Origin: Pseudomonadota bacterium
GTDB lineage: Bacteria; Pseudomonadota; Alphaproteobacteria; Acetobacterales; Acetobacteraceae
DNA: 64,000 nt
Reading direction: 5' to 3'
Assembly (NCBI GenBank): GCA_018240635.1
Contig: JAFEFJ010000002.1
Coordinates: 1,251 to 65,250, forward strand
Shown: positions 37,381-47,045 of the stretch, in pieces
Position numbering within the stretch: the stretch's first letter is position 1
Layout of the letters: each line of letters begins with the position of its first letter
Notes under the pieces: model-generated
The model's input: only the letters and a program-made list of their open reading frames with translations
Database searches by the model: none
What the model was told of the DNA's origin: nothing
Made by a program: the position numbers and the translations under genes

Positions 37381-39201
37381 ATGAACCTAACCGCCCCCCA
37401 GCTCTGCCCCTGCGGCAGCGGCCTGCGCGCGATACGTTGCTGCAGCCAGCCGCAGGGCGCCCGCGCGCCGGCCGAGGCGACCCGCCACCTGATCCCGCTC
37501 GTCGAGCGGGCGCTGGCCGCGCATCGCCAGGGAGCGACTGAAACCGCCGAGCGGCTCTGCCTCGATGTGCTCGAACTCGCGCCGGACCGGATCGGGGCGC
37601 TGTCGGTGCTGTACGAGATCCGCAAGGCCCAGGGCAACCAGACCGCGGCCGAGGCGTTGCTGCGGCGTCTGGTCGGCCTCGATCCGAACAACCTGCTCGT
37701 TACGAACGAACTCGCGCTGATCCTGCTCGGCAAGGGCAGCATCGCGGAAGCGGAAGTCCACGCCCGCAACGCCGTACGCATCGCGCCTGAGAACCCGCAG
37801 GCCCACAACCTGATGGGCATGATCCTGACGGAGGCGAACCGGCCGCAAATCGGCGAATACCACTACCGCCGCGTCCTGGAACTCAGCGGCACGCGCGATC
37901 CGATAGTGCTCGCCAACCTCGCTTGGAACCTGAAGAACCAGGGTCGCATGGACGAGGCCCGCGCTCTCTACAAGGAGTCGGTGGCGGTCGCCCCGGACGT
38001 CCTGCAAACCCAGATCGGCTTCACGCGGCTCGAGGAAGCGGACCGGGATTTCCCCGCCGCGCTCCGCATCCTCGACGATGCGGACACGCGGTTTCCGGGC
38101 AATGTCGGTTTGCGCCTTGCCCGCGCCGCCGTTCTCGGGCGCATGCAGCGCTACAACGAAGCTGTCGCGCTCATCGACGGCGCGGCCACCGACAACGTCG
38201 CGCTCGGCCCGAACGAGCTGCTGGAGAAGGGACGCCTGCTCGACAAGATGGGCCGCTACGACGCGGCCTGGGCGGCCTACGCCGAAGGCAAGTCCCTTGC
38301 CCGGCAGCTCACCGGCCATGCCTATCTGGACGAGGCGGCGCGCAACCTGCTCGACCGGCTGCGCGGCTTCTTCATCGAGGGAAGGCTGCGCACGCTCCCA
38401 CGCGCAACCGTCCGCACCGACGTGCCACAGCCCATTTTCATCCTCGGCTTTCCGCGCTCTGGCACCACGCTCGTCGAGCAGACCCTCTCCGCCCATCCGC
38501 GCATCGCGGCGGGCGACGAGCTGCCGCTGATCCACGAGATCACCGCGATCATGCCGCGCATGCTCGCCTCTCCGCTCGAATATCCGGAAGCCCTGGCCGA
38601 GCTATGGATGGGCGACCAGCGGGAAGGGCTCGACAACCTGCGCGACTACTACCTGCAGAAGGTGCGGCAGCTCGGCGTGCTGCGGCGCGGCGCGACGCGC
38701 TTCACCGACAAGATGCCGCTGAACGAGACGCATATCGGCCTGATCGGGCTGCTGTTTCCCGAAGCGCCGATGATCCATGTGCTGCGCCATCCGCTCGACA
38801 TCATGGTCTCGGCGTTCTCGAACGCGTTCACGCACGGCTTCAACTGCGCGGCCGACCTTCATACGGCGGCGACGCATTATGTGCGGGTGATGGACCTGGT
38901 GCAGCATTATCGCGGCGAGATGGCGCTGCGCTACCTGCCGGTCCGCTACGAGGACATCGTCGCCGGCCAGGAAGCCAGCGTCCGTGCCATCCTGGATTTC
39001 GTCGGCGAGGCGTTCGATCCCGCTTGCCTGGCGTTCCACGAAAACCGCCGCTACGCCCGCACCGCGAGCTACGCGCAGGTCACCGAGCCGCTGTACGACC
39101 GCTCGGTCGACCGGTGGCGGCATTACCGCGCGCATCTCGAACCGGTCATCCCGATCCTCGCGCCGGTGATCGAACGCCTCGGCTACCGGCTCGACCCGTG
39201 A
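37381..39201 (+). CDS. SEC-C motif / TPR-repeat / sulfotransferase fusion protein
   Basis: 606 aa. N-terminal CPCGSGLRAIRCC (SEC-C metal-binding motif), then TPR-like repeats from about residue 40 to 330. The C-terminus has a PAPS-binding-type sulfotransferase motif (FILGFPRSGTTLVEQTL). Confidence 0.8.
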   Translation: MNLTAPQLCPCGSGLRAIRCCSQPQGARAPAEATRHLIPLVERALAAHRQGATETAERLCLDVLELAPDRIGALSVLYEIRKAQGNQTAAEALLRRLVGLDPNNLLVTNELALILLGKGSIAEAEVHARNAVRIAPENPQAHNLMGMILTEANRPQIGEYHYRRVLELSGTRDPIVLANLAWNLKNQGRMDEARALYKESVAVAPDVLQTQIGFTRLEEADRDFPAALRILDDADTRFPGNVGLRLARAAVLGRMQRYNEAVALIDGAATDNVALGPNELLEKGRLLDKMGRYDAAWAAYAEGKSLARQLTGHAYLDEAARNLLDRLRGFFIEGRLRTLPRATVRTDVPQPIFILGFPRSGTTLVEQTLSAHPRIAAGDELPLIHEITAIMPRMLASPLEYPEALAELWMGDQREGLDNLRDYYLQKVRQLGVLRRGATRFTDKMPLNETHIGLIGLLFPEAPMIHVLRHPLDIMVSAFSNAFTHGFNCAADLHTAATHYVRVMDLVQHYRGEMALRYLPVRYEDIVAGQEASVRAILDFVGEAFDPACLAFHENRRYARTASYAQVTEPLYDRSVDRWRHYRAHLEPVIPILAPVIERLGYRLDP

Positions 39202-39247
39202 CCGCACCCGATGGCGTCCCGTGCGGGGCCTGCCCGCGCCGGGCCTG

Positions 39248-40690
39248 ATGGAAACGCCGCCGTCAAATCCCAACGCGACGGTCTCCGCCGTGCAGGGCGG
39301 AATCGCACCGCCGATGGTGCCCATCCCGCTCGACGCCGCGCTTGCCATCGCGCGCGAACTGGAGAGTACCGGCCGCTTCGACGAGGCTTGGTCGATGCTG
39401 CAATTCATCCTCGCTGCGGCGCCGCAACAGGGCGAGGCCCTGCACCTCGCGGGGGTCGTCGCGTTCCGCCGCGGCGAGGGGGAGGCGGCGCTCCGGCTGA
39501 TGGAGCAGTCGCTGCAATACGGCATCGACCTGTCGCTCTATTGGCGGAACATCGCCGAACTCTATCGCGTGCTCGGCCGCCTCGACGACGCGATCGGAGC
39601 GGCGCGAAGGGCAACCAGGCTTGCGCCCGCCGATCCGCTCTGCCTGCAGAACCAAGCCATCATCCACTACCATCGGCTGGAGTTGGGCGAGGCGCTGGAT
39701 TGCAGCGCGCGCGCGCTTGCCATCGCCCCGGCGCTGCCCGGCGCGCATTTCGCCCGTGCGGAGGCGCTGCTGCTGCGCGGCGACTGGGCCGAGGGGTGGG
39801 AGGAATACGAGTGGCGCTTCCGCATCGGCGGCGCCGCGCCCCTGATGCCGCCGACCGATCGCCCGCAGTGGCAGGGCCGGCAAATCGCCGATGCGACGCT
39901 GCTTCTGGTCGCCGATCAGGGCTTCGGCGACGTCATCCAGTTCGGCCGGTATATCCCCTGGGCACGCCAGCGGTGCGCGCGTCTTGCCATCGCGTGCAGC
40001 GGCGAGATGCTGCCCGTCCTGCGCCGCCTCGCGCCGGATGCGGTCCTGTTCACGCGGTGGGACGACTGCCCTCCCTATGCCGCGTTCGCGGCGCTTTCGG
40101 GTCTGCCGCGCCTTGCGGGCACGCGACCGGAGAATGTGCCGGCCGACATCCCCTATCTTCGGCCCGATCCCGAGCGCGTCGCCCGCTGGACCGCCCGGCT
40201 CGACGGGCTCGTGCCGCGCGGGCTGCGCCGGATCGGGGTGATCTGGGCCGGGCGTCCGGCGCACAACAACGACCGCAACCGCAGCCTGCATCTTCCCGAT
40301 CTCGCTCCGCTCGGCGAGGTGCCGGGCATCGCATTGATCGCCTTGCAGAAAGGCGCCCGCACAGGCCAGGCCGGCGGATGGTTCGCGCGTGCGCCGCTCA
40401 TCAACGTCGGGGCCGAGATCGCGGACTACGAGGACACGATGGCGATCCTCGCGGTCCTTCAGGAGTTGGTTACGGTCGATACCTCCGTCGCCCATCTGGC
40501 GGGCGCGATGGGCCGCCCGGTGCGCGTCATGCTGCCGTTCGCGCCGGATTGGCGCTGGCTTCTCGGCCGCGCCGACACGCCCTGGTACCCGACGATGCGC
40601 CTGTACCGGCAGCAAGCGCCGCACCGATGGGCGCCGGTCATTGCCGGGATCGCGGGCGACTTGGCGGGGGCGTCTCCGCCCGCCGCCTGA
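39248..40690 (+). CDS. TPR-repeat protein fused to a GT9 (heptosyltransferase)-like glycosyltransferase domain
   Basis: N-terminal TPR repeats. The C-terminal half (...LLLVADQGFGDVIQFGRYIPW...VTVDTSVAHLAGAMGRPVRVMLPFAPDWRW...) matches the GT9-like fold seen in TPR-glycosyltransferases. ATG 39248 or GTG 39221 could be the start. Confidence 0.7.
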   Translation: METPPSNPNATVSAVQGGIAPPMVPIPLDAALAIARELESTGRFDEAWSMLQFILAAAPQQGEALHLAGVVAFRRGEGEAALRLMEQSLQYGIDLSLYWRNIAELYRVLGRLDDAIGAARRATRLAPADPLCLQNQAIIHYHRLELGEALDCSARALAIAPALPGAHFARAEALLLRGDWAEGWEEYEWRFRIGGAAPLMPPTDRPQWQGRQIADATLLLVADQGFGDVIQFGRYIPWARQRCARLAIACSGEMLPVLRRLAPDAVLFTRWDDCPPYAAFAALSGLPRLAGTRPENVPADIPYLRPDPERVARWTARLDGLVPRGLRRIGVIWAGRPAHNNDRNRSLHLPDLAPLGEVPGIALIALQKGARTGQAGGWFARAPLINVGAEIADYEDTMAILAVLQELVTVDTSVAHLAGAMGRPVRVMLPFAPDWRWLLGRADTPWYPTMRLYRQQAPHRWAPVIAGIAGDLAGASPPAA

Positions 40691-40721: not shown

Positions 40722-43700
40722 TCAGGCCGCGATGTGGCTGTGCAGCACCGCCAGCGGATCGGCCAGCGACTGGTCGGTCGAAGCGCCCGCGTAGTTCTGC
40801 GTCGTTCCCGTCGCGCCGCCGCTGCTGCCGACGGTCAGCGGCACGAGATCCTGCAACGCGACGGTCCCGGCCGGGGCCGCCTGGAACAGGATGTCGGTGC
40901 CGCCCTGGCCATCGCTCTGCAACCCGAAATTCTGGGTCGTGTAGCTGCCCTGGAATTGCAGCGTGCCGAGCGTCGCGCCTCCGGCTCCCTTCAGCGTCAG
41001 CGTGTGGTTCAGGAACGACAGCGAGGCGATGTTCAGGTTCCGCATGTCGATGACGTCGCCGGAAGCGAAGCCCGTGAAGGTGCTGGTCACCGCCGAGGTG
41101 GTGTTGACGACGAGCGTCTCGGAACCGCCCGTCGCGAAATTCACCTGCGAAACCGTCAGGCCCTTCTGCGTGACCACCGTGGAGCTGTTCGCGATGCTCA
41201 GGACGCCCGTGCCCGACACGTCGCTGGCAAGCGTCAGCGTGCCGCCCTGGCCGATGATCTTGCCGTTATCGACGATGCCGGCCGTTCCGCCGCCGCCGAT
41301 CTGGCCGCGCCCCGCCACCGTGAAGCCCTGCGCGACCGTGATCGCGCCAGCGGCCGCGGCAGCGGCGGCGGCATTGCCGCCGACGACGACCTTCCCGTTG
41401 GCGGATGCCGCCAGCGTCCCGCCGCCCATCGTCACGCCCGCGAGCTGAACGACGCCGGCCCCCGCCGTCTGCAGGATGCCGCCGCTTCGGATCGTGACCT
41501 GCCCGGCATCCGACAAGGACCCGCTCACGGCGAGCGTTCCGCTGTCCATGAGGCTCGTCCCCGCGCCCAGCGTGTTGCTGCCGGCCATGCGCCAGCTCGC
41601 GCCGGAGGCAACGCCGATGCTGGTGAAGCCGACATACTGGCTGCCCAGGCCCGCGATCGTGCCCGCCGACGCTGCCGATGCCAGGGTCAGCGAGTCGTTG
41701 CTTCCGTTGCCCTGCACCACGCCGTTGAACACCGCGCCGGGGGTCACGATCAGCGTGGCCGCGTTCGCCCCGAACAGCACCGCCTGGCCCGCCGATCCGG
41801 CCGAGCCGTAGGTGCTGCCGCCGCCTGCGCCGCCGGCGATCGTGCCGGAATTGGTCAGCGTCCCGCCGTTCAGATAGACGCCCACGCCGCCTGCGCCGCC
41901 GGCCGTGTAGAGCCCCGCGCCACCCGTGCCGCCCGTGATGCTGCCGGTGTTGGTCGCCGACCCGCCGGCCGCCAGGGAAAGGCCGGTGCCGCCGGCGCCG
42001 CCGGTATAGGCGCCGTTGCCCCCGGATCCGCCCGTCACCGTGCCGCTGTTGGTGGCGCTGCCGCCGACGGCCAGCAGGATGCCGATGCCGCCGGCCACGC
42101 TGTCGAAGCTGTAGCCGCCCGCACCACCCGTGACGCCGCCGCTGTTGACGACCGATCCGCCTGCCGACAGCACGATGCCAGCACCGCCGATGCCTGCCAG
42201 CGCCCCTTCGGCCCCCGCGCCGCCGGTGATGGCGCCCTGGTTCGTCAGCGTGCCGCCGCCATCGACCGCAAAGCCGATGCCGCCTGCGCCGGCGACGAAG
42301 CCGCCGCCGCCGATGCCGCCGGTGATCGTTCCATCGCTGGTGCTGCTGCCGCCGGTCAGAACGGCGCCGTCTCCGCCGGTCCCGCCAAGGCCGTACAGCC
42401 CGGCATAGTCGCCGGCGCCGCCGCTGATCGCGCCGAAGGCGGTCACCGTCGCGCCCGCCTCGATGATCAGGCCGGCTCCGCCGGCGCCGCCGATGTAGTA
42501 GCCGATGCCGCCGTCGCCGCCATGCACCGCGCCGGTGTTGGCGAATGTGCCGCCCGCCGCGACGTCGACGCCCGCACCGCCGGTGCCGCCGTTGAAGCCC
42601 TGTCCGCCCATGCCGCCGGTCACGATGCCGGGGCTCGTCAGCAAGCCCGCGCTGCCGACGACCGCGCCCGCGCCGCCGGTGCCGCCGATGGCGCCCGATC
42701 CTCCGGCGCCCCCGTTGATGGCGCCGTAGCTGGTCGCGCTGCTGCCGGCCAGGGAAAGGCCCGTGCCGCCGGTGCCGCCATACAGGCTGCTCCCGCCGGT
42801 GCCGCCTGCGATCAGGCCGTAATTGCCGATGGTCGCGCCGCTCGTGCCGGAAACGCCGGCGCCCCCCGCGCCGCCCGTCCCGTAGGTCCCGGCAAGGCCG
42901 CCGCCGCCGCCCGATATGGTCGCATAGTTGCCGACGGTCCCGCCCGCCGCGACCGCAATCCCGGCGCCGCCGGCACCGCCCGCCTCGTAAGAGTTGCCGC
43001 CGAGCCCCCCGGTGGTCTGGCCCGCGTTGTAGACGCCGCCGCCCGCCGTCAGCGCGACGCCCGTCCCGCCGGTGCCGCCGCTCGCGTAGCCATAGGCACC
43101 GCTGCCGCCGCCGATGGCGCCGTCGTTGGTCACGTAGGCGCCGTAGGTGCCGGCCTGCACGCCAGCGGCGGTCCCGGTGATCGTCCCCGTCGCCGTGTTC
43201 GACAGATAGCCGCCGCCGTTCAGCGTAACGCCGACGCCCGCGGTCCCGTTCGCGCGGATCAGGCCTGCGTTCATGATCGATCCGGAATCCTGGAGCGACA
43301 CGCCCGCCGCGACGCCGTTGATCGAACCGCTGTCGATATTCGTCAGCGTCGCCTGCGCATACGAGTTGACGGCAATGCCCTGCGGACCGTTCGCGACGAT
43401 GCTTCCGGCGTTCGAGACCGTGGCCACGCCGTCGTAAAGGTAAACGCCGAACTTGGTGCCGCCGATCACGCCGGTGCTGCCGTTCACCAGCGTGCCGCCG
43501 GCGTGCATCTCTAGGCCGATGCCGATGCTGCCGGGGCTCAGGATCTTGCCGAAATTAACAACCGTACCGGCAGCTGAGAAATAGACGCCGTATCCGGAAC
43601 CAGCGATCGTCCCCGTGGAGGCGTTGGAGACGTAGCCGCCGCTGATCATTTCGACGCCGAGGGCCGTCGTCACGCCAGGGCTCGTCGGGCCGGTGCCGCC

Positions 43701-44738
43701 GATGTAGCCGGCATTGATCACCGTTCCGGCGCCGTAGAGAGAACGGGCCCCCGCATACGATGCTGCGATCCGCCCCGTCGCTGCGTTGTTGATCACGCCG
43801 CCCAAATGCAGATCGACGCCGAAGCTCTTCGTCCCGGTCGCGGTAATCTGGCCGCCGTTGAGGATGGTGGCGACTCCGCCGTCGCTCACGACGCCATACG
43901 ACACGCCGCGGATCGAGCCGCGGGCGGCGTTCGAGACATAGCCGCCGGACAACAGGCCGATGCCGGCGCCGGCCGTGCCCGTTCCGGTGATCAGGCCGCC
44001 GTTGATGATCGTGCCCGATCCGGCTTCCACCGACACGCCGTAATAGGTGCCTGCGATCGTGCCGGTGGACTGATTGGTGACGGAGCCGCCACCATTCAAC
44101 GTCACGCCGTTCGCGAAGGTGCCGGTTCCGGTGGCGGCGATCGTGCCGGCGTTGACGACTGTTCCGCCGCCATAGATCCCAACGCCCGCATACAGGGCGG
44201 TGATCGACGCGCTCGCGGCGTTGGTTACCGTCCCGCCTTCGAACAGCGCGACGCCCACGCCCAACTTCGCGGTGGCGGAGATGCTGCCCTGGTTGACCAC
44301 CTTTCCGGCGACATCGTACAGAAATACTCCGCCCGCGCCGCCCGTGATGGCCGCCCCGGCCGCGTTGGTGACCGATCCGCCCCCAAACATCCCCACGCCG
44401 ATCGCGGTCTTGCCGCTTCCGGTGATCTTCCCGCGGTTGACGAGCAGGCCGTAGCCGTAGATGCCGACGCCCTTGTAGGTGCCGACGATCGAACCCGCCG
44501 CATTATTGGTGATCGTGCCTGAATTGCCCGCGCCGAACAGGGCGATGCCAATGCCTGTTGCCCCGGTTCCGCCGATGTTCCCGGAGTTGCTGATCGACCA
44601 CCCGCTGCTGTAGCCGACGATGGCGAATCCGACATTGGAGATCTTCACGCCGTTTTTGACGACGATTGGATTGAAGTAGGGATAGCTGCCGGAGTCGAGG
44701 TTGATGCCGATAGTCGTGCTGGCGGTTATTGTTGTCAT
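40722..44738 (-). CDS. 1338-aa Gly/Thr/Ser/Ala-rich repeat protein (predicted beta-helical; export route unknown)
   Basis: Uninterrupted 4017-nt ORF, with GGAG 8 nt upstream of ATG 44738. No N-terminal signal peptide (MTTITASTTIGINLDSG...). About 48-aa GGxVxN...GxIxG...GV units in the N-terminal part, then GGxGGxG-rich units, then a C-terminal part lacking an autotransporter barrel. Confidence 0.85.
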   Translation of the reverse strand: MTTITASTTIGINLDSGSYPYFNPIVVKNGVKISNVGFAIVGYSSGWSISNSGNIGGTGATGIGIALFGAGNSGTITNNAAGSIVGTYKGVGIYGYGLLVNRGKITGSGKTAIGVGMFGGGSVTNAAGAAITGGAGGVFLYDVAGKVVNQGSISATAKLGVGVALFEGGTVTNAASASITALYAGVGIYGGGTVVNAGTIAATGTGTFANGVTLNGGGSVTNQSTGTIAGTYYGVSVEAGSGTIINGGLITGTGTAGAGIGLLSGGYVSNAARGSIRGVSYGVVSDGGVATILNGGQITATGTKSFGVDLHLGGVINNAATGRIAASYAGARSLYGAGTVINAGYIGGTGPTSPGVTTALGVEMISGGYVSNASTGTIAGSGYGVYFSAAGTVVNFGKILSPGSIGIGLEMHAGGTLVNGSTGVIGGTKFGVYLYDGVATVSNAGSIVANGPQGIAVNSYAQATLTNIDSGSINGVAAGVSLQDSGSIMNAGLIRANGTAGVGVTLNGGGYLSNTATGTITGTAAGVQAGTYGAYVTNDGAIGGGSGAYGYASGGTGGTGVALTAGGGVYNAGQTTGGLGGNSYEAGGAGGAGIAVAAGGTVGNYATISGGGGGLAGTYGTGGAGGAGVSGTSGATIGNYGLIAGGTGGSSLYGGTGGTGLSLAGSSATSYGAINGGAGGSGAIGGTGGAGAVVGSAGLLTSPGIVTGGMGGQGFNGGTGGAGVDVAAGGTFANTGAVHGGDGGIGYYIGGAGGAGLIIEAGATVTAFGAISGGAGDYAGLYGLGGTGGDGAVLTGGSSTSDGTITGGIGGGGFVAGAGGIGFAVDGGGTLTNQGAITGGAGAEGALAGIGGAGIVLSAGGSVVNSGGVTGGAGGYSFDSVAGGIGILLAVGGSATNSGTVTGGSGGNGAYTGGAGGTGLSLAAGGSATNTGSITGGTGGAGLYTAGGAGGVGVYLNGGTLTNSGTIAGGAGGGSTYGSAGSAGQAVLFGANAATLIVTPGAVFNGVVQGNGSNDSLTLASAASAGTIAGLGSQYVGFTSIGVASGASWRMAGSNTLGAGTSLMDSGTLAVSGSLSDAGQVTIRSGGILQTAGAGVVQLAGVTMGGGTLAASANGKVVVGGNAAAAAAAAGAITVAQGFTVAGRGQIGGGGTAGIVDNGKIIGQGGTLTLASDVSGTGVLSIANSSTVVTQKGLTVSQVNFATGGSETLVVNTTSAVTSTFTGFASGDVIDMRNLNIASLSFLNHTLTLKGAGGATLGTLQFQGSYTTQNFGLQSDGQGGTDILFQAAPAGTVALQDLVPLTVGSSGGATGTTQNYAGASTDQSLADPLAVLHSHIAA
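41790..43125 (-). repeat. Gly-rich (GGxGGxG, PGRS-like) degenerate tandem coding repeats, about 32-aa unit
   Basis: Residues about 538-983 repeat GG-x-[VT]-x-N-x-G-x-I-x-GG-x-GG-x5-GG-x-GG-x-G. The DNA is dominated by GCC/GCCG runs on the plus strand. Confidence 0.6.
43126..44531 (-). repeat. Degenerate tandem coding repeats, about 48-aa unit (GGxVxN-x3-GxIxG-x3-GV...GxVxNxGxI...)
   Basis: Read from the translated protein, residues about 70-537. At least nine consecutive units begin GGSVTN, GGTVTN, GGSVTN, GGYVSN, GGVINN, GGYVSN, GGTLVN, ATLTN, GGYLSN. Confidence 0.6.
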
Positions 44739-45024
44739 GCGACGCTCCGGAACGACCTAAAATATAGGAGGGGTTAAAAGCCGACCGGCGACCCCCTCTG
44801 CCGCGGAACGCCTATGGCACGATTGGGATCGAGCGTCTAGGTGATCTCGAAACTGAGACTGTTGCCGATGCGATCACGAAATGCGGAAATCCGCTCGGCC
44901 AAGCATGACGGGACGGCGGCAACCCGCGGGACTCTCGGAACGCTCCCCGCTCGCCTATGATGGCTCCGACATGCGGGCGCATTCAGACCCGCGAAGCCTT
45001 CTCGCGGGCACGGGGATTTGGTCG

Positions 45025-46035
45025 ATGCACCGTCTGTTGCATGAGGAGCACGCGGCCGACGCGGTGGCCGTCTCCACCGGGCGGCTGCCCGCCGCCGATG
45101 CCGTCGCAGCGCTGGTCCGTGAGGGACACGAACGATATCGGGGCGTGCGCGACGGCGCTGTGGCCGACTACATCCCCGCCTTGGCGGCGGCCGATCCGGC
45201 GTGGTTCGGCGTGGCGCTCTGCGGCGTCGATGGCGGGTTGTTCGCGGCCGGCGATGCGGACCGGGTGTTCTCGATCCAGTCGATCTCCAAGCCGTTCGTG
45301 TTCGCGCTCGTCTGCCAGGCTCTCGGCGGCGGGCGCGCACGCGACAGCATCGGGGTCAACGCGACCGGCCTTCCGTTCAACTCCGTAATGGCGATCGAAC
45401 TGAACGCGCGCCGTACGATGAACCCGATGGTCAACGCCGGCGCGATCGCCACCACCAGCCTGATTCCCGGCGCGAACGAGGACGAACGGTGGGATTTCCT
45501 GTGCGACGGCCTCTCGCGCTTCGCGGGCCGGACGCTGGCGATGGACCAGGGCGTCTATGAGTCGGAGGCTGCGAGCAATCAGCGCAACCGTGGCATCGCG
45601 CGCCTGCTGCACGGCTATGGCCGCATGTATTCCGATCCCGACGAGGCGACCGATCTCTACACGCGGCAATGTGCGCTGATGGTCAGCGCACGGGATCTCG
45701 CCGTCATGGGCGCCACGCTTGCCGATGGCGGGGTCAACCCCGTCACCGGCCTTCGCGTGCTCTATCCGGATCGCTGCAGGCGTATCCTGGCGGTGATGGC
45801 GACGGCCGGGCTTTATGAGCAGTCGGGCGACTGGCTCTACGAAGTGGGGCTGCCCGGCAAGAGCGGTGTGTCCGGCGGCCTGGTCACGATCGCGCCCGGC
45901 AAATGCGGCCTGGGCACTTTCGCCCCGCCTCTCGACGATGCGGGCAACAGCGTGCGCGGGCAGCTCGTCACACAGTTTCTTTCGGAACGGCTTGGCCTGA
46001 ATATCTTCGCGTCGAAGCCCGAAGATACGGGTTGA
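45025..46035 (+). CDS. glsA: Glutaminase A
   Basis: ...DYIPALAAADPAWFGVALCGVDGGLFAAGDADRVFSIQSISKPFVFAL...MNPMVNAGAI...GLPGKSGVSGG..., beta-lactamase-fold glutaminase motifs. The start could also be 44971 or 44881. Confidence 0.85.
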   Translation: MHRLLHEEHAADAVAVSTGRLPAADAVAALVREGHERYRGVRDGAVADYIPALAAADPAWFGVALCGVDGGLFAAGDADRVFSIQSISKPFVFALVCQALGGGRARDSIGVNATGLPFNSVMAIELNARRTMNPMVNAGAIATTSLIPGANEDERWDFLCDGLSRFAGRTLAMDQGVYESEAASNQRNRGIARLLHGYGRMYSDPDEATDLYTRQCALMVSARDLAVMGATLADGGVNPVTGLRVLYPDRCRRILAVMATAGLYEQSGDWLYEVGLPGKSGVSGGLVTIAPGKCGLGTFAPPLDDAGNSVRGQLVTQFLSERLGLNIFASKPEDTG

Positions 46036-46061
46036 CGATCCGCGCAGGGCAGGGAAGCCCC

Positions 46062-47045
46062 ATGACCTCCAGAATTCCGCGTCTGCTCGTGCTGTCGTTG
46101 GGCGGAACCATCACGATGGTCCCACAAGCCTCGGGCGGCATCGTTCCGGTGCTCGGCGCCGCCGACCTGATCGCATCGATCCCGGCGCTCGCCGGGCTCG
46201 CCGAAATCGAAACGGAATCGCCCGCTCGCGTGCCCAGCGCATCGCTCGACCCCGCCACGATGGCGGGCGTCGCGATCCGCATTCATGCCGCGTTCGCTGC
46301 CGGTTTCGATGGCGCGGTCGTGATTCAAGGCACCGACACGATCGAGGAATCCGCCTTCCTGCTCGACCTTCTGGTGAACGGCGATCGCCCGGTCGTCGTC
46401 ACGGGCGCGATGCGGGGCGCGGAAGCGGCGGGCGCCGACGGGCCGGCCAATCTGTTCGCAGCGGTGCGCGTCGCCGCTAGCGAGGAGGCCTGCGGCCTCG
46501 GCGCACTGGTCGTCCTCAACGACGAGATCCACGCCGCACGCCTCGTCCAGAAAGGGCACACCGCGCTGCCCTCCGCGTTCCGCTCGCCGCTTGCCGGGCC
46601 GGTGGGCGCGGTCGTCGAGGGACGCCCGCGGATCTGGGCGCGCCCGCCGCGGATGCCGCGTTTCCCTGCCGCGCTTGGCGCGCCGCCGCCCGTGGCTCTC
46701 ATCCGCTGGGCGATGGGCGAGGACGGGCGGCTTCTCGGTGCCCTCGCGGGCCTTGGCTATGCCGGGGCCGTGATCGAGGGCATGGGCGCGGGGCATGTCC
46801 CCGCGGCGGCAGTGGACGCGGTGGCCGCACTGGCGCGGCAGATGCCGGTTGTTCTCGCGTCCCGCTGCGATACCGGCCCGGTCTTCACCCGCACCTACGG
46901 TTATGCGGGCGGCGAGATCGACCTGATCCGACGGGGCGCGGTGCCGGGCGGAATGCTGTCGGGACCGAAGGCGCGGCTGCTGCTGGGATTGGCACTGCGG
47001 GAATCCGGCGCGAACATCGCGGACTGCTTCGCGCCGTACTCGTAG
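46062..47045 (+). CDS. L-asparaginase (type I/plant-bacterial family)
   Basis: MTSRIPRLLVLSLGGTITM... and VVIQGTDTIEESAF... asparaginase active-site motifs. 26 nt downstream of glsA. Confidence 0.85.
   Translation: MTSRIPRLLVLSLGGTITMVPQASGGIVPVLGAADLIASIPALAGLAEIETESPARVPSASLDPATMAGVAIRIHAAFAAGFDGAVVIQGTDTIEESAFLLDLLVNGDRPVVVTGAMRGAEAAGADGPANLFAAVRVAASEEACGLGALVVLNDEIHAARLVQKGHTALPSAFRSPLAGPVGAVVEGRPRIWARPPRMPRFPAALGAPPPVALIRWAMGEDGRLLGALAGLGYAGAVIEGMGAGHVPAAAVDAVAALARQMPVVLASRCDTGPVFTRTYGYAGGEIDLIRRGAVPGGMLSGPKARLLLGLALRESGANIADCFAPYS

Follow-up and report, generated by a model that had tools for sequence, protein, structure and literature searches.

A conserved gene pair joining TPR-fused TPST-like sulfotransferase and GT9-like glycosyltransferase in Acetobacteraceae, statistically associated with glycine-rich repeat and Hint_2 proteins

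The stretch of DNA described here, hereafter referred to as the window, comprises 64,000 nucleotides of contig JAFEFJ010000002.1 (positions 1,251 to 65,250), from an Acetobacteraceae assembly (GCA_018240635.1). It contains two consecutive genes, each combining a tetratricopeptide repeat (TPR) array with a transferase domain, that converge on an open reading frame (ORF) encoding a glycine-rich repeat protein of 1338 aa (Table 1). Consistent with an earlier description made from the letters alone (the sequence-only reading), both transferase ORFs were found on the forward strand with Pfam support for both TPR arrays and for the sulfotransferase domain, a gap of 46 nt separates them when the ATG at 39248 is taken as the start of gene 2, and 31 nt lie between the end of gene 2 (40690) and the stop codon of the 1338-aa ORF (40722). 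With a GC content of ca. 69%, the window is one in which real genes can be told by frames having a high GC content at third codon positions (GC3); this value reaches 0.85-0.88 in all three frames, which are therefore supported as real genes. As documented below, the two transferase genes form a tight cassette kept together in ca. 75 related species, and this cassette is tied statistically, at the family level only, to a family of repeat proteins that includes the 1338-aa product.

Table 1. Features of the cassette, the convergent repeat protein and the adjoining region (positions in the window)
Feature	Position	Strand	Description and evidence
Gene 1	37381..39201	+	606 aa; SEC-C-like motif, TPR array, sulfotransferase domain; ORF, translation, Pfam
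SEC-C-like metal-binding motif CPCGSGLRAIRCC, residues 9-21	37405..37443	+	Pfam SEC-C sub-threshold, conservation
Gene 1 TPR array, ca. residues 38-340	37492..38400	+	Pfam TPR_2, TPR_19, TPR_1, TPR_8, TPR_14
Sulfotransferase domain, TPST-like	38428..39201	+	5'-phosphosulfate-binding motif (5'-PSB) GFPRSGTTL 356-364, E380, K444, 3'-phosphate-binding motif (3'-PB) R469...S477
Gene 2	39248..40690	+	480 aa from ATG; TPR array and GT9-like GT-B domain; alternative upstream GTG 39221
Gene 2 TPR array, helices at residues 28-192 of the 480-aa form	39329..39823	+	Pfam TPR, AlphaFold2 (AF2) secondary structure, PDB sequence matches
GT9-like GT-B catalytic domain	39833..40690	+	GFGD (D228), VDTSVAHL (D411, T412, S413, H416); domain model, Foldseek
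Candidate substrate, 1338-aa Gly-rich repeat protein	40722..44738	-	Convergent; translation, composition, repeat periods
48-aa repeats, residues 1-540	43119-44738	-	Repeat period
32/33-aa GGxGG repeats, residues 540-985	41784-43118	-	Repeat period
Non-repeat C-terminal domain	40722-41783	-	Homology to pre-Hint region
Photosynthesis gene cluster	4571-37257		Fills left half and center of the window
tspO	ends 37257		Right edge of photosynthesis cluster, followed by gene 1

The product of gene 1 matches the Pfam family Sulfotransfer_3 (PF13469) over residues 351-547 with an E-value of 2.8e-35 (123 bits for a cut-off of 27), and the FPRSGTTL loop pointed out in the sequence-only reading occupies residues 357-364. 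When phmmer was used to search solved structures, human TPST2 and TPST1 were the closest relatives of the sulfotransferase domain and aligned with essentially its whole length (E=1.7e-11). By counting along this alignment from the arginine of PRSG, R359, E380 and K444 fall on TPST2 Arg78, Glu99 and Lys158, respectively, which are the catalytic residues of that enzyme (PMC10951654). These three positions, together with the GFPRSGTTL motif and the 3'-phosphate motif R469...S477, are invariant in an alignment of 29 homologues. Identity between gene 1 and its homologues is 63-90%. Other matches of the PF13469 type included the CurM sulfotransferase (ST) and a weak match to NoeE at the loop for 3'-phosphoadenosine 5'-phosphosulfate (PAPS). 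Gene 1 is thus a predicted PAPS-dependent sulfotransferase of the TPST-like type. Many Pfam TPR families match its product, at roughly residues 40-250, and the TPR region is very strongly conserved in the 29-homologue alignment. The N-terminal segment CPCGSGLRAIRCC had been labeled SEC-C: C9, C11, G12-S13-G14, C20 and C21 are invariant in the 29 homologues, so that all four cysteines and the GSG are retained, whereas the match to Pfam SEC-C (PF02810, CxCxSGx(n)C[CH]) reaches 15.2 bits (E=0.02) for a cut-off of 20.4. In several long-contig metagenome-assembled genomes (MAGs; L002, L005, L007 and L008, loci being designated here by L numbers), the sulfotransferase gene was called as two or three fragments, while near-identical contigs carry it intact; sequencing errors that shift the frame are a more probable cause of the fragmented calls than true pseudogenes.

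For gene 2, the longest ORF begins at GTG 39221 and encodes 489 aa, but the ATG at 39248 is the likely start because homologues are ca. 468 aa in length. The public gene call on the same contig, which is 396 aa long (81% of the ORF) and starts well inside the conserved TPR region, was probably given a start too far downstream. The GFGDVIQF and VDTSVAHLAG motifs noticed earlier are both present, and their key residues are invariant among 32 homologues having a mean column identity of 72%. The match to Pfam GT9 (PF01075, Glyco_transf_9) is limited to 30 residues at model positions 176-205, with 16.1-17.0 bits for a cut-off of 22. PDB sequence searches with gene 2 returned consensus TPR proteins and the TPR region of OGT, and no solved relative by sequence beyond the TPR region. 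The AF2 model of the whole protein (mean confidence pLDDT 84) was nearest to SPINDLY (SPY) and OGT, including bacterial OGT-like proteins (E ca. 4e-12, with low TM-scores of 0.3-0.38), a resemblance that, in the model, is one of overall architecture. With the catalytic domain modeled by itself (pLDDT 86), the Foldseek matches were headed by GT9 enzymes, namely WaaC (2h1h; E=7e-7, TMq 0.55), WaaF (1psw), TibC (4rap; E=1.8e-6) and a Veillonella GT9 protein (3tov), over a range of E 7e-7 to 4e-6 and TMq 0.50-0.59. Alignment with E. coli K-12 WaaC using hhalign covered 29 columns only, placing VDTSVAHL on VDTGLSHL and D411 on D261, with WaaC D261-T262-G263..H266 as the counterpart of DTS..H in gene 2. 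In the model, the aspartate of GFGD (D228) follows strand 1, and hhalign left it unaligned to WaaC D13. In WaaC, both D13 (after strand 1) and D261 (DTG motif) are important for function. The term GT9-like used in the sequence-only reading is therefore appropriate for the modeled fold and the motifs, while the Pfam threshold for GT9 is missed.

Two further assignments were considered for gene 2 and rejected. Membership of GT41 is contradicted by the lack of any PF13844 match and by the domain-only fold search, in which GT9 enzymes came first and no GT41 member appeared in the top 50. A shared origin, or the same docking site, for the two TPR arrays was also rejected, as their similarity is only that of generic TPRs (E=0.01). 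Gene 2 shares its GT9-like domain with a very large family, in which 41,848 clusters at 50% identity have E<=1e-3 and 20,724 reach 1e-30. In many of these proteins, which attain 1000-3140 aa, the GT9-like domain is present in 2-6 tandem copies; we know of no function for such multi-copy forms.

Both proteins of the cassette have thousands of homologues in databases, the best of which are 65-85% identical and come from Acetobacteraceae MAGs; contigs of identical length turn up among the matches of both proteins. Using gene 2, 80 species-representative loci were recovered, mostly from Acetobacteraceae; these included Rhodopila MAGs, as well as two cultured carriers, Acidisphaera sp. S103 and Limobrevibacterium gyesilva RN2-1. 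Identity to gene 2 ranges from 53 to 71% in these loci, and that of the upstream gene 1 homologues from 61 to 83%. The sulfotransferase gene was found directly upstream and on the same strand in ca. 74 of the 80 species loci. The exceptions were two loci cut at contig ends, three loci whose glycosyltransferase is more divergent in sequence and which have no sulfotransferase, and one locus with the genes in divergent arrangement. Several contigs with called genes show an overlap between the stop codon of the first gene and the start codon of the second. Genes 1 and 2 thus constitute a tight cassette that has been kept together in ca. 75 related species. Labels in databases are only generic for both proteins, and a literature search combining TPR, sulfotransferase, glycosyltransferase, heptosyltransferase and SEC-C retrieved no publication on the gene pair or on either protein type. 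Some MAG records carrying an Acetobacteraceae-type cassette (L035, L048 and L033) are labeled Bifidobacterium, Nitrosovibrio or Bradyrhizobium, and these odd taxon labels are likely due to mis-binning or mislabeling.

Outside of the cassette, the flanks vary widely. The only recurrent families belong to unrelated metabolism, namely thiamine pyrophosphate (TPP) enzymes, a family III CoA-transferase, molybdopterin dehydrogenases, short-chain dehydrogenase/reductases (SDR), glutamyl-tRNA synthetase (GluRS) and GH77, and no recurrent conserved partner gene was found in the cassette flanks. The sequence-only reading had stated beforehand that co-occurrence of the transferases with lipopolysaccharide (LPS), exopolysaccharide (EPS) or flagellin genes would tell against its interpretation; across ca. 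80 loci, no LPS, EPS, capsule or lipid A genes recur beside the cassette, and neither flagellar genes nor genes for pseudaminic or legionaminic acid (Pse/Leg, the nonulosonic acids) were found near it in ca. 85 contexts. A cysN/APS-kinase fusion gene, which would supply PAPS, is located at positions 1-1377 of L002, ca. 8 kb upstream of the cassette, and was not seen in the other contexts examined. In seven loci of the Rhodopila-like clade (L035, L039, L042, L047, L048, L063 and L064), a conserved protein of ca. 450-550 aa with no Pfam match is encoded directly downstream on the same strand. This protein (cluster 8) was set aside; by eye it resembles an ATP-dependent DNA ligase-like protein and seems unrelated.

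The convergent 1338-aa protein had been described as Ser/Thr-rich. While Ser and Thr account for 19.7% of its residues, it is above all a Gly-rich protein (27% Gly), with 3.4% Tyr, 2.6% Asp+Glu and no Cys. Searches of Pfam, NCBIfam and PDB sequences yielded no match. When the cassette neighbors were clustered, repeat proteins rich in Gly, Ser and Thr and related to the 1338-aa protein emerged as a loose family, represented in 13 of 79 loci. Of the nine family members adjoining the cassette, seven possess a Hint_2 domain (PF13403, bacterial intein-like) near their C-terminus. The C-terminal ca. 350 residues of the 1338-aa protein are homologous (E ca. 1e-16) to the region that precedes Hint in these cassette-adjacent proteins. 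Because of this homology, and because its sequence ends where Hint would begin, the 1338-aa protein can be regarded as a family member without Hint; having neither a Pfam match to Hint_2 nor a cysteine, it has only the repeats and the pre-Hint domain in common with Hint_2 proteins. A homologue search with this C-terminal domain gave 36 matches, mostly short hypothetical proteins, among which the protein of the window itself was not returned. The Hint_2 domains found in L017, L030, L033, L035, L037, L039 and L050 start with a nucleophilic cysteine (e.g., PCFLRGT, PCYCPGT), and are followed by tails of 67-193 aa belonging to two or three conserved types. The cysteine and the conserved tails suggest, from sequence features, an autoprocessing step that may release or re-attach the Gly-rich part. 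A polymorphic-toxin reading of the Hint_2 neighbors was set aside, their tails being of these few conserved types rather than hypervariable tips.

Synteny of all three genes was not borne out beyond the closest relative. While the cassette pair is maintained, the exact order tspO, sulfotransferase, glycosyltransferase, convergent giant protein and glutaminase is confined to the closest relative, in which the full trio is found on two contigs. On L003, identity is 84-85% for the glycosyltransferase and 90% for the sulfotransferase, and the convergent giant protein has a length of 1659 aa; L004 is a fragment with the end of the sulfotransferase gene, the glycosyltransferase gene and a convergent giant ORF. 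At the level of the family, the association is much broader. Family members occupy 11 of the 139 slots adjoining the cassette and 5 of the 619 slots located farther away (odds ratio 10.6, Fisher p=1e-5). When a Hint_2 hidden Markov model (HMM) was run on six-frame translations of 82 loci, 11 loci proved to have a Hint_2 gene at most 1 kb from the cassette and only two such genes were detected farther, although ca. 87% of the searched sequence lies beyond that distance (binomial p=1.1e-8). Hint_2 and repeat-protein genes occur convergent downstream, co-directional downstream, directly upstream or in divergent orientation, and on the glycosyltransferase tree the adjacent cases fall at seven or more separate places. 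Within the clade that includes the window, a Hint_2 or repeat-protein neighbor is present in each of the six members. The metagenomic contig L093 encodes a protein resembling the C-terminal domain of the giant protein, followed by a Hint_2 protein, and both converge on the glycosyltransferase and sulfotransferase genes. The cassette is thus tied to the repeat-protein family statistically and at the family level only. The connection with the giant protein drawn earlier from adjacency survives as an enrichment of Gly-rich and Hint_2 neighbors, and fails as a link to the exact gene, with ca. 85% of the loci having no such neighbor. Overall, the earlier observation was confirmed and its interpretation is partly supported.

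Neither gene product displays an evident signal peptide or membrane segment, as judged by eye, and both enzymes should therefore act in the cytoplasm. We tentatively propose, as the most probable reading and giving it a little under an even chance, that the cassette is a cytoplasmic two-enzyme system glycosylating and sulfating Gly-rich repeat and Hint_2 proteins, which would be its candidate clients. The identities of the domains, the conserved catalytic motifs, the tight gene pair and the statistical association are directly supported by the data, whereas a protein as acceptor, its modified residues, the sugar donor and the reaction order are inferred and may be envisaged as follows. Each enzyme would dock on the client by means of its own TPR array, before the client is exported. 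Using a nucleotide sugar as donor, the GT9-like GT-B domain would glycosylate Ser or Thr of the client, a specificity suggested because of the analogy with TibC/AAH, FlmG, and OGT and SPY; ADP-heptose could be the donor, as for WaaC and TibC. The TPST-like domain would take sulfate from PAPS and place it either on a tyrosine or on the sugar that gene 2 has attached. Since the 1338-aa protein has no acidic Tyr contexts, glycan sulfation appears at least as likely as classical tyrosine sulfation. The clients themselves would be Gly/Ser/Thr-rich repeat proteins of the beta-helix type, most with Hint_2 and with the 1338-aa protein as a Hint-less member. In a more ambitious version, the TPR-guided GT9-like O-glycosyltransferase and the TPST-like sulfotransferase would jointly decorate secreted Gly-rich beta-helical or Hint_2 proteins with sulfated glycans or sulfotyrosine, and the SEC-C-like motif may tether the sulfotransferase to the SecB or ribosome export route; we regard this version as unlikely.

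Several observations weigh against the proposal that these repeat proteins are the clients. Since ca. 85% of the species loci have no repeat-protein neighbor, the cassette is not dedicated to the 1338-aa gene, and in these species the clients would have to be encoded elsewhere. Three of the four homologues of the C-terminal domain that were looked up lie far from any cassette, an observation that is uninformative unless set against the family copy number per genome. The candidate clients are divergent (30-40% identity), while both enzymes, including their TPR arrays, are 53-90% identical. With 2.6% Asp+Glu and tyrosines at repeat-core-like positions, the 1338-aa protein is unlike known TPST sites. 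The GT9 match lies below the Pfam threshold, and Foldseek gave modest TM-scores (0.5-0.6). Phylogenetic independence does not hold among the sampled species, and ORF calls in the loci are crude. Finally, the sequencing runs that matched were of metagenomic DNA only, with partial matches and no RNA.

Part of this evidence would be better accommodated if the client were a different conserved protein, cytoplasmic or exported, that is encoded elsewhere, as in regulatory modification of the OGT/SPY type or housekeeping modification of the EarP type. In such a case, the occasional adjacency of Hint_2 and Gly-rich genes would result from shared regulation or from a recombination-prone spot instead of a relation between enzyme and substrate. 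The retention of the cassette in ca. 75 species among otherwise unrelated neighbors is consistent with this scenario, as is the very high conservation of both proteins, TPR arrays included (72-75% mean column identity), which would fit an invariant partner. The nearest whole-protein folds of gene 2, SPY and OGT, point in the same direction. SecA carries a C-terminal zinc motif, and by reference to it the invariant SEC-C-like motif could indicate a partner in a ribosome, SecB or SecA context. However, a different client leaves unexplained the enrichment of Hint_2 and Gly-rich genes beside the cassette in several orientations and lineages, and no conserved partner gene recurs in the flanks. We consider this scenario somewhat unlikely.

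An acceptor other than a protein appears improbable. Under this hypothesis, the sugar would be added to the LPS core, a lipid or a polysaccharide, and the resulting glycan would be sulfated, as in sulfated rhizobial LPS and Nod factors, with the TPRs serving only to assemble an envelope-biogenesis complex. Most characterized GT9 enzymes are LPS heptosyltransferases, and WaaC and WaaF were the top fold matches of the catalytic domain; PF13469 also covers carbohydrate and small-molecule sulfotransferases, as illustrated by CurM ST and by the weak NoeE match at the PAPS loop, and one relative has the cysN/APS-kinase gene 8 kb upstream. Yet genes for LPS, EPS, capsule or lipid A are not recurrent near the cassette in ca. 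80 loci, and both enzymes have long TPR arrays and no membrane segments. Moreover, TPSTs are the closest relatives of the sulfotransferase domain along its entire length, their three catalytic residues aligning with it, and the association with repeat proteins would be left without explanation. It is very improbable that the pair, with either or both of its domains devoid of catalytic activity, serves as a TPR scaffold or chaperone in the folding or secretion of repeat proteins without modifying them covalently: although the glycosyltransferase domain is below the Pfam GT9 threshold, with only 29 columns aligned to WaaC by hhalign, and genes of a donor-sugar pathway are not linked to the cassette, GFGD, DTS..H, PRSGTT, E380, K444 and R469..S477 are invariant across homologues, which implies purifying selection on the active sites of both enzymes.

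The proposed modification of repeat proteins by the cassette has partial precedents in known systems. TibC and AAH O-glycosylate Ser in the beta-helical repeat passenger domain of an adjacently encoded exported protein, TibC being responsible for the heptosylation of an autotransporter passenger. Like gene 2, they are cytoplasmic GT-B enzymes related to GT9, and TibC was among the top fold matches (E=1.8e-6). In contrast to gene 2, they have no TPR array. These enzymes reportedly contain an iron-binding Cys motif and form dodecamers, findings attributed to Lu et al. 2014 and Yao et al. 2014, whereas direct reading of the gene 2 catalytic domain revealed no CxxC-type cluster. TibC/AAH genes adjoin that of their autotransporter substrate, while the repeat protein adjoins the cassette in the window and in ca. 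15% of its relatives and is devoid of autotransporter domains; the 1338-aa candidate client, having no Pfam match, is not a recognizable autotransporter. We know of no sulfotransferase partner for TibC/AAH.

A second parallel, drawn by the sequence-only reading, is FlmG of Caulobacter, in which flagellin is bound by the N-terminal TPR region and receives its sugar from the C-terminal GT-B domain while still in the cytoplasm, prior to export (PMC7591256; bioRxiv 10.1101/2022.03.25.485807). Gene 2 has the same two-part design, with an N-terminal TPR array and a C-terminal GT-B domain, and the parallel holds for this architecture only: the substrates of FlmG are flagellins and its sugars pseudaminic or legionaminic acid, in a context of flagellar and nonulosonic-acid genes that the cassette flanks do not share. 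OGT and SPINDLY (GT41) also fuse a TPR superhelix to a GT-B domain and modify Ser/Thr of proteins, but they are of the Glyco_transf_41 type, while the catalytic domain of gene 2 taken alone matches GT9. WaaC and WaaF share with gene 2 the fold, the DT[GS]xxHL nucleotide-sugar motif and, on direct reading against WaaC, a Gly-Asp motif after the first strand; unlike gene 2, they have no TPR array, act on Kdo2-lipid A at the membrane and are encoded in LPS core operons.

On the sulfotransferase side, TPST1 and TPST2 align with the full length of the gene 1 domain (E ca. 2e-11). TPSTs are type II membrane proteins of the Golgi lumen. Xanthomonas RaxST is a stand-alone enzyme encoded beside its peptide substrate RaxX (PMC6637879). 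In contrast to gene 1, neither the TPSTs nor RaxST are known to have a TPR array, a SEC-C-like motif or a paired glycosyltransferase.

Only a small number of TPR-guided protein glycosyltransferases, FlmG and OGT-like enzymes among them, are known to have been characterized. To our knowledge, protein sulfation is almost unknown in bacteria, RaxST-RaxX being the sole example. Neither of these enzyme kinds, the TPR-guided protein glycosyltransferase or the protein-tyrosine sulfotransferase, is new in itself; the novelty lies in a conserved cassette that joins the two, with a TPR array on each, a SEC-C-like motif on the sulfotransferase and a statistical tie with intein-like repeat proteins. A TPST-type sulfotransferase and a GT9-like glycosyltransferase are here inherited as a unit across a bacterial family and tied statistically to obscure repeat and intein-like proteins. 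If the cassette does modify these proteins, it would offer a testable enzyme-substrate hypothesis and a first function for part of the TPR-linked GT9-like family (>40,000 clusters at 50% identity), and surface or secreted proteins of Acetobacteraceae would bear sulfated modifications. Double modification of a protein client would make the cassette the first bacterial protein sulfation system besides RaxST-RaxX.

The left half and center of the window are occupied by a photosynthesis gene cluster, which indicates that the organism is a phototroph belonging to the Acetobacteraceae or related to them. This cluster comprises crtF/E/D-I/B-like genes, bchI, an ALA-synthase-like gene, acsF, puhA, lhaA/pucC, bchL, bchH, bchB, bchN and bchF, followed by a B12-binding ppaA/aerR-like gene, ppsR, bchG/bchP-type genes (the identity of bchG being deduced from the syntenic L003) and tspO. 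As a functional context for the cassette, this cluster was rejected: the placement of the cassette beside it is lineage-specific, and apart from the window and L003 a tspO neighbor is found in L073 alone, where the cassette may likewise lie at the right edge of the cluster. A scan for promoters and terminators gave nothing exceeding shuffled expectation. To the right of the 1338-aa ORF are genes for a glutaminase, an asparaginase, TauD, PutA and a branched-chain amino-acid ABC transporter. As listed, the glutaminase ORF (44881-46035) and the asparaginase ORF (45903-47045) overlap by ca. 130 nt, and the true start of the asparaginase gene is probably located downstream of its first in-frame start codon.

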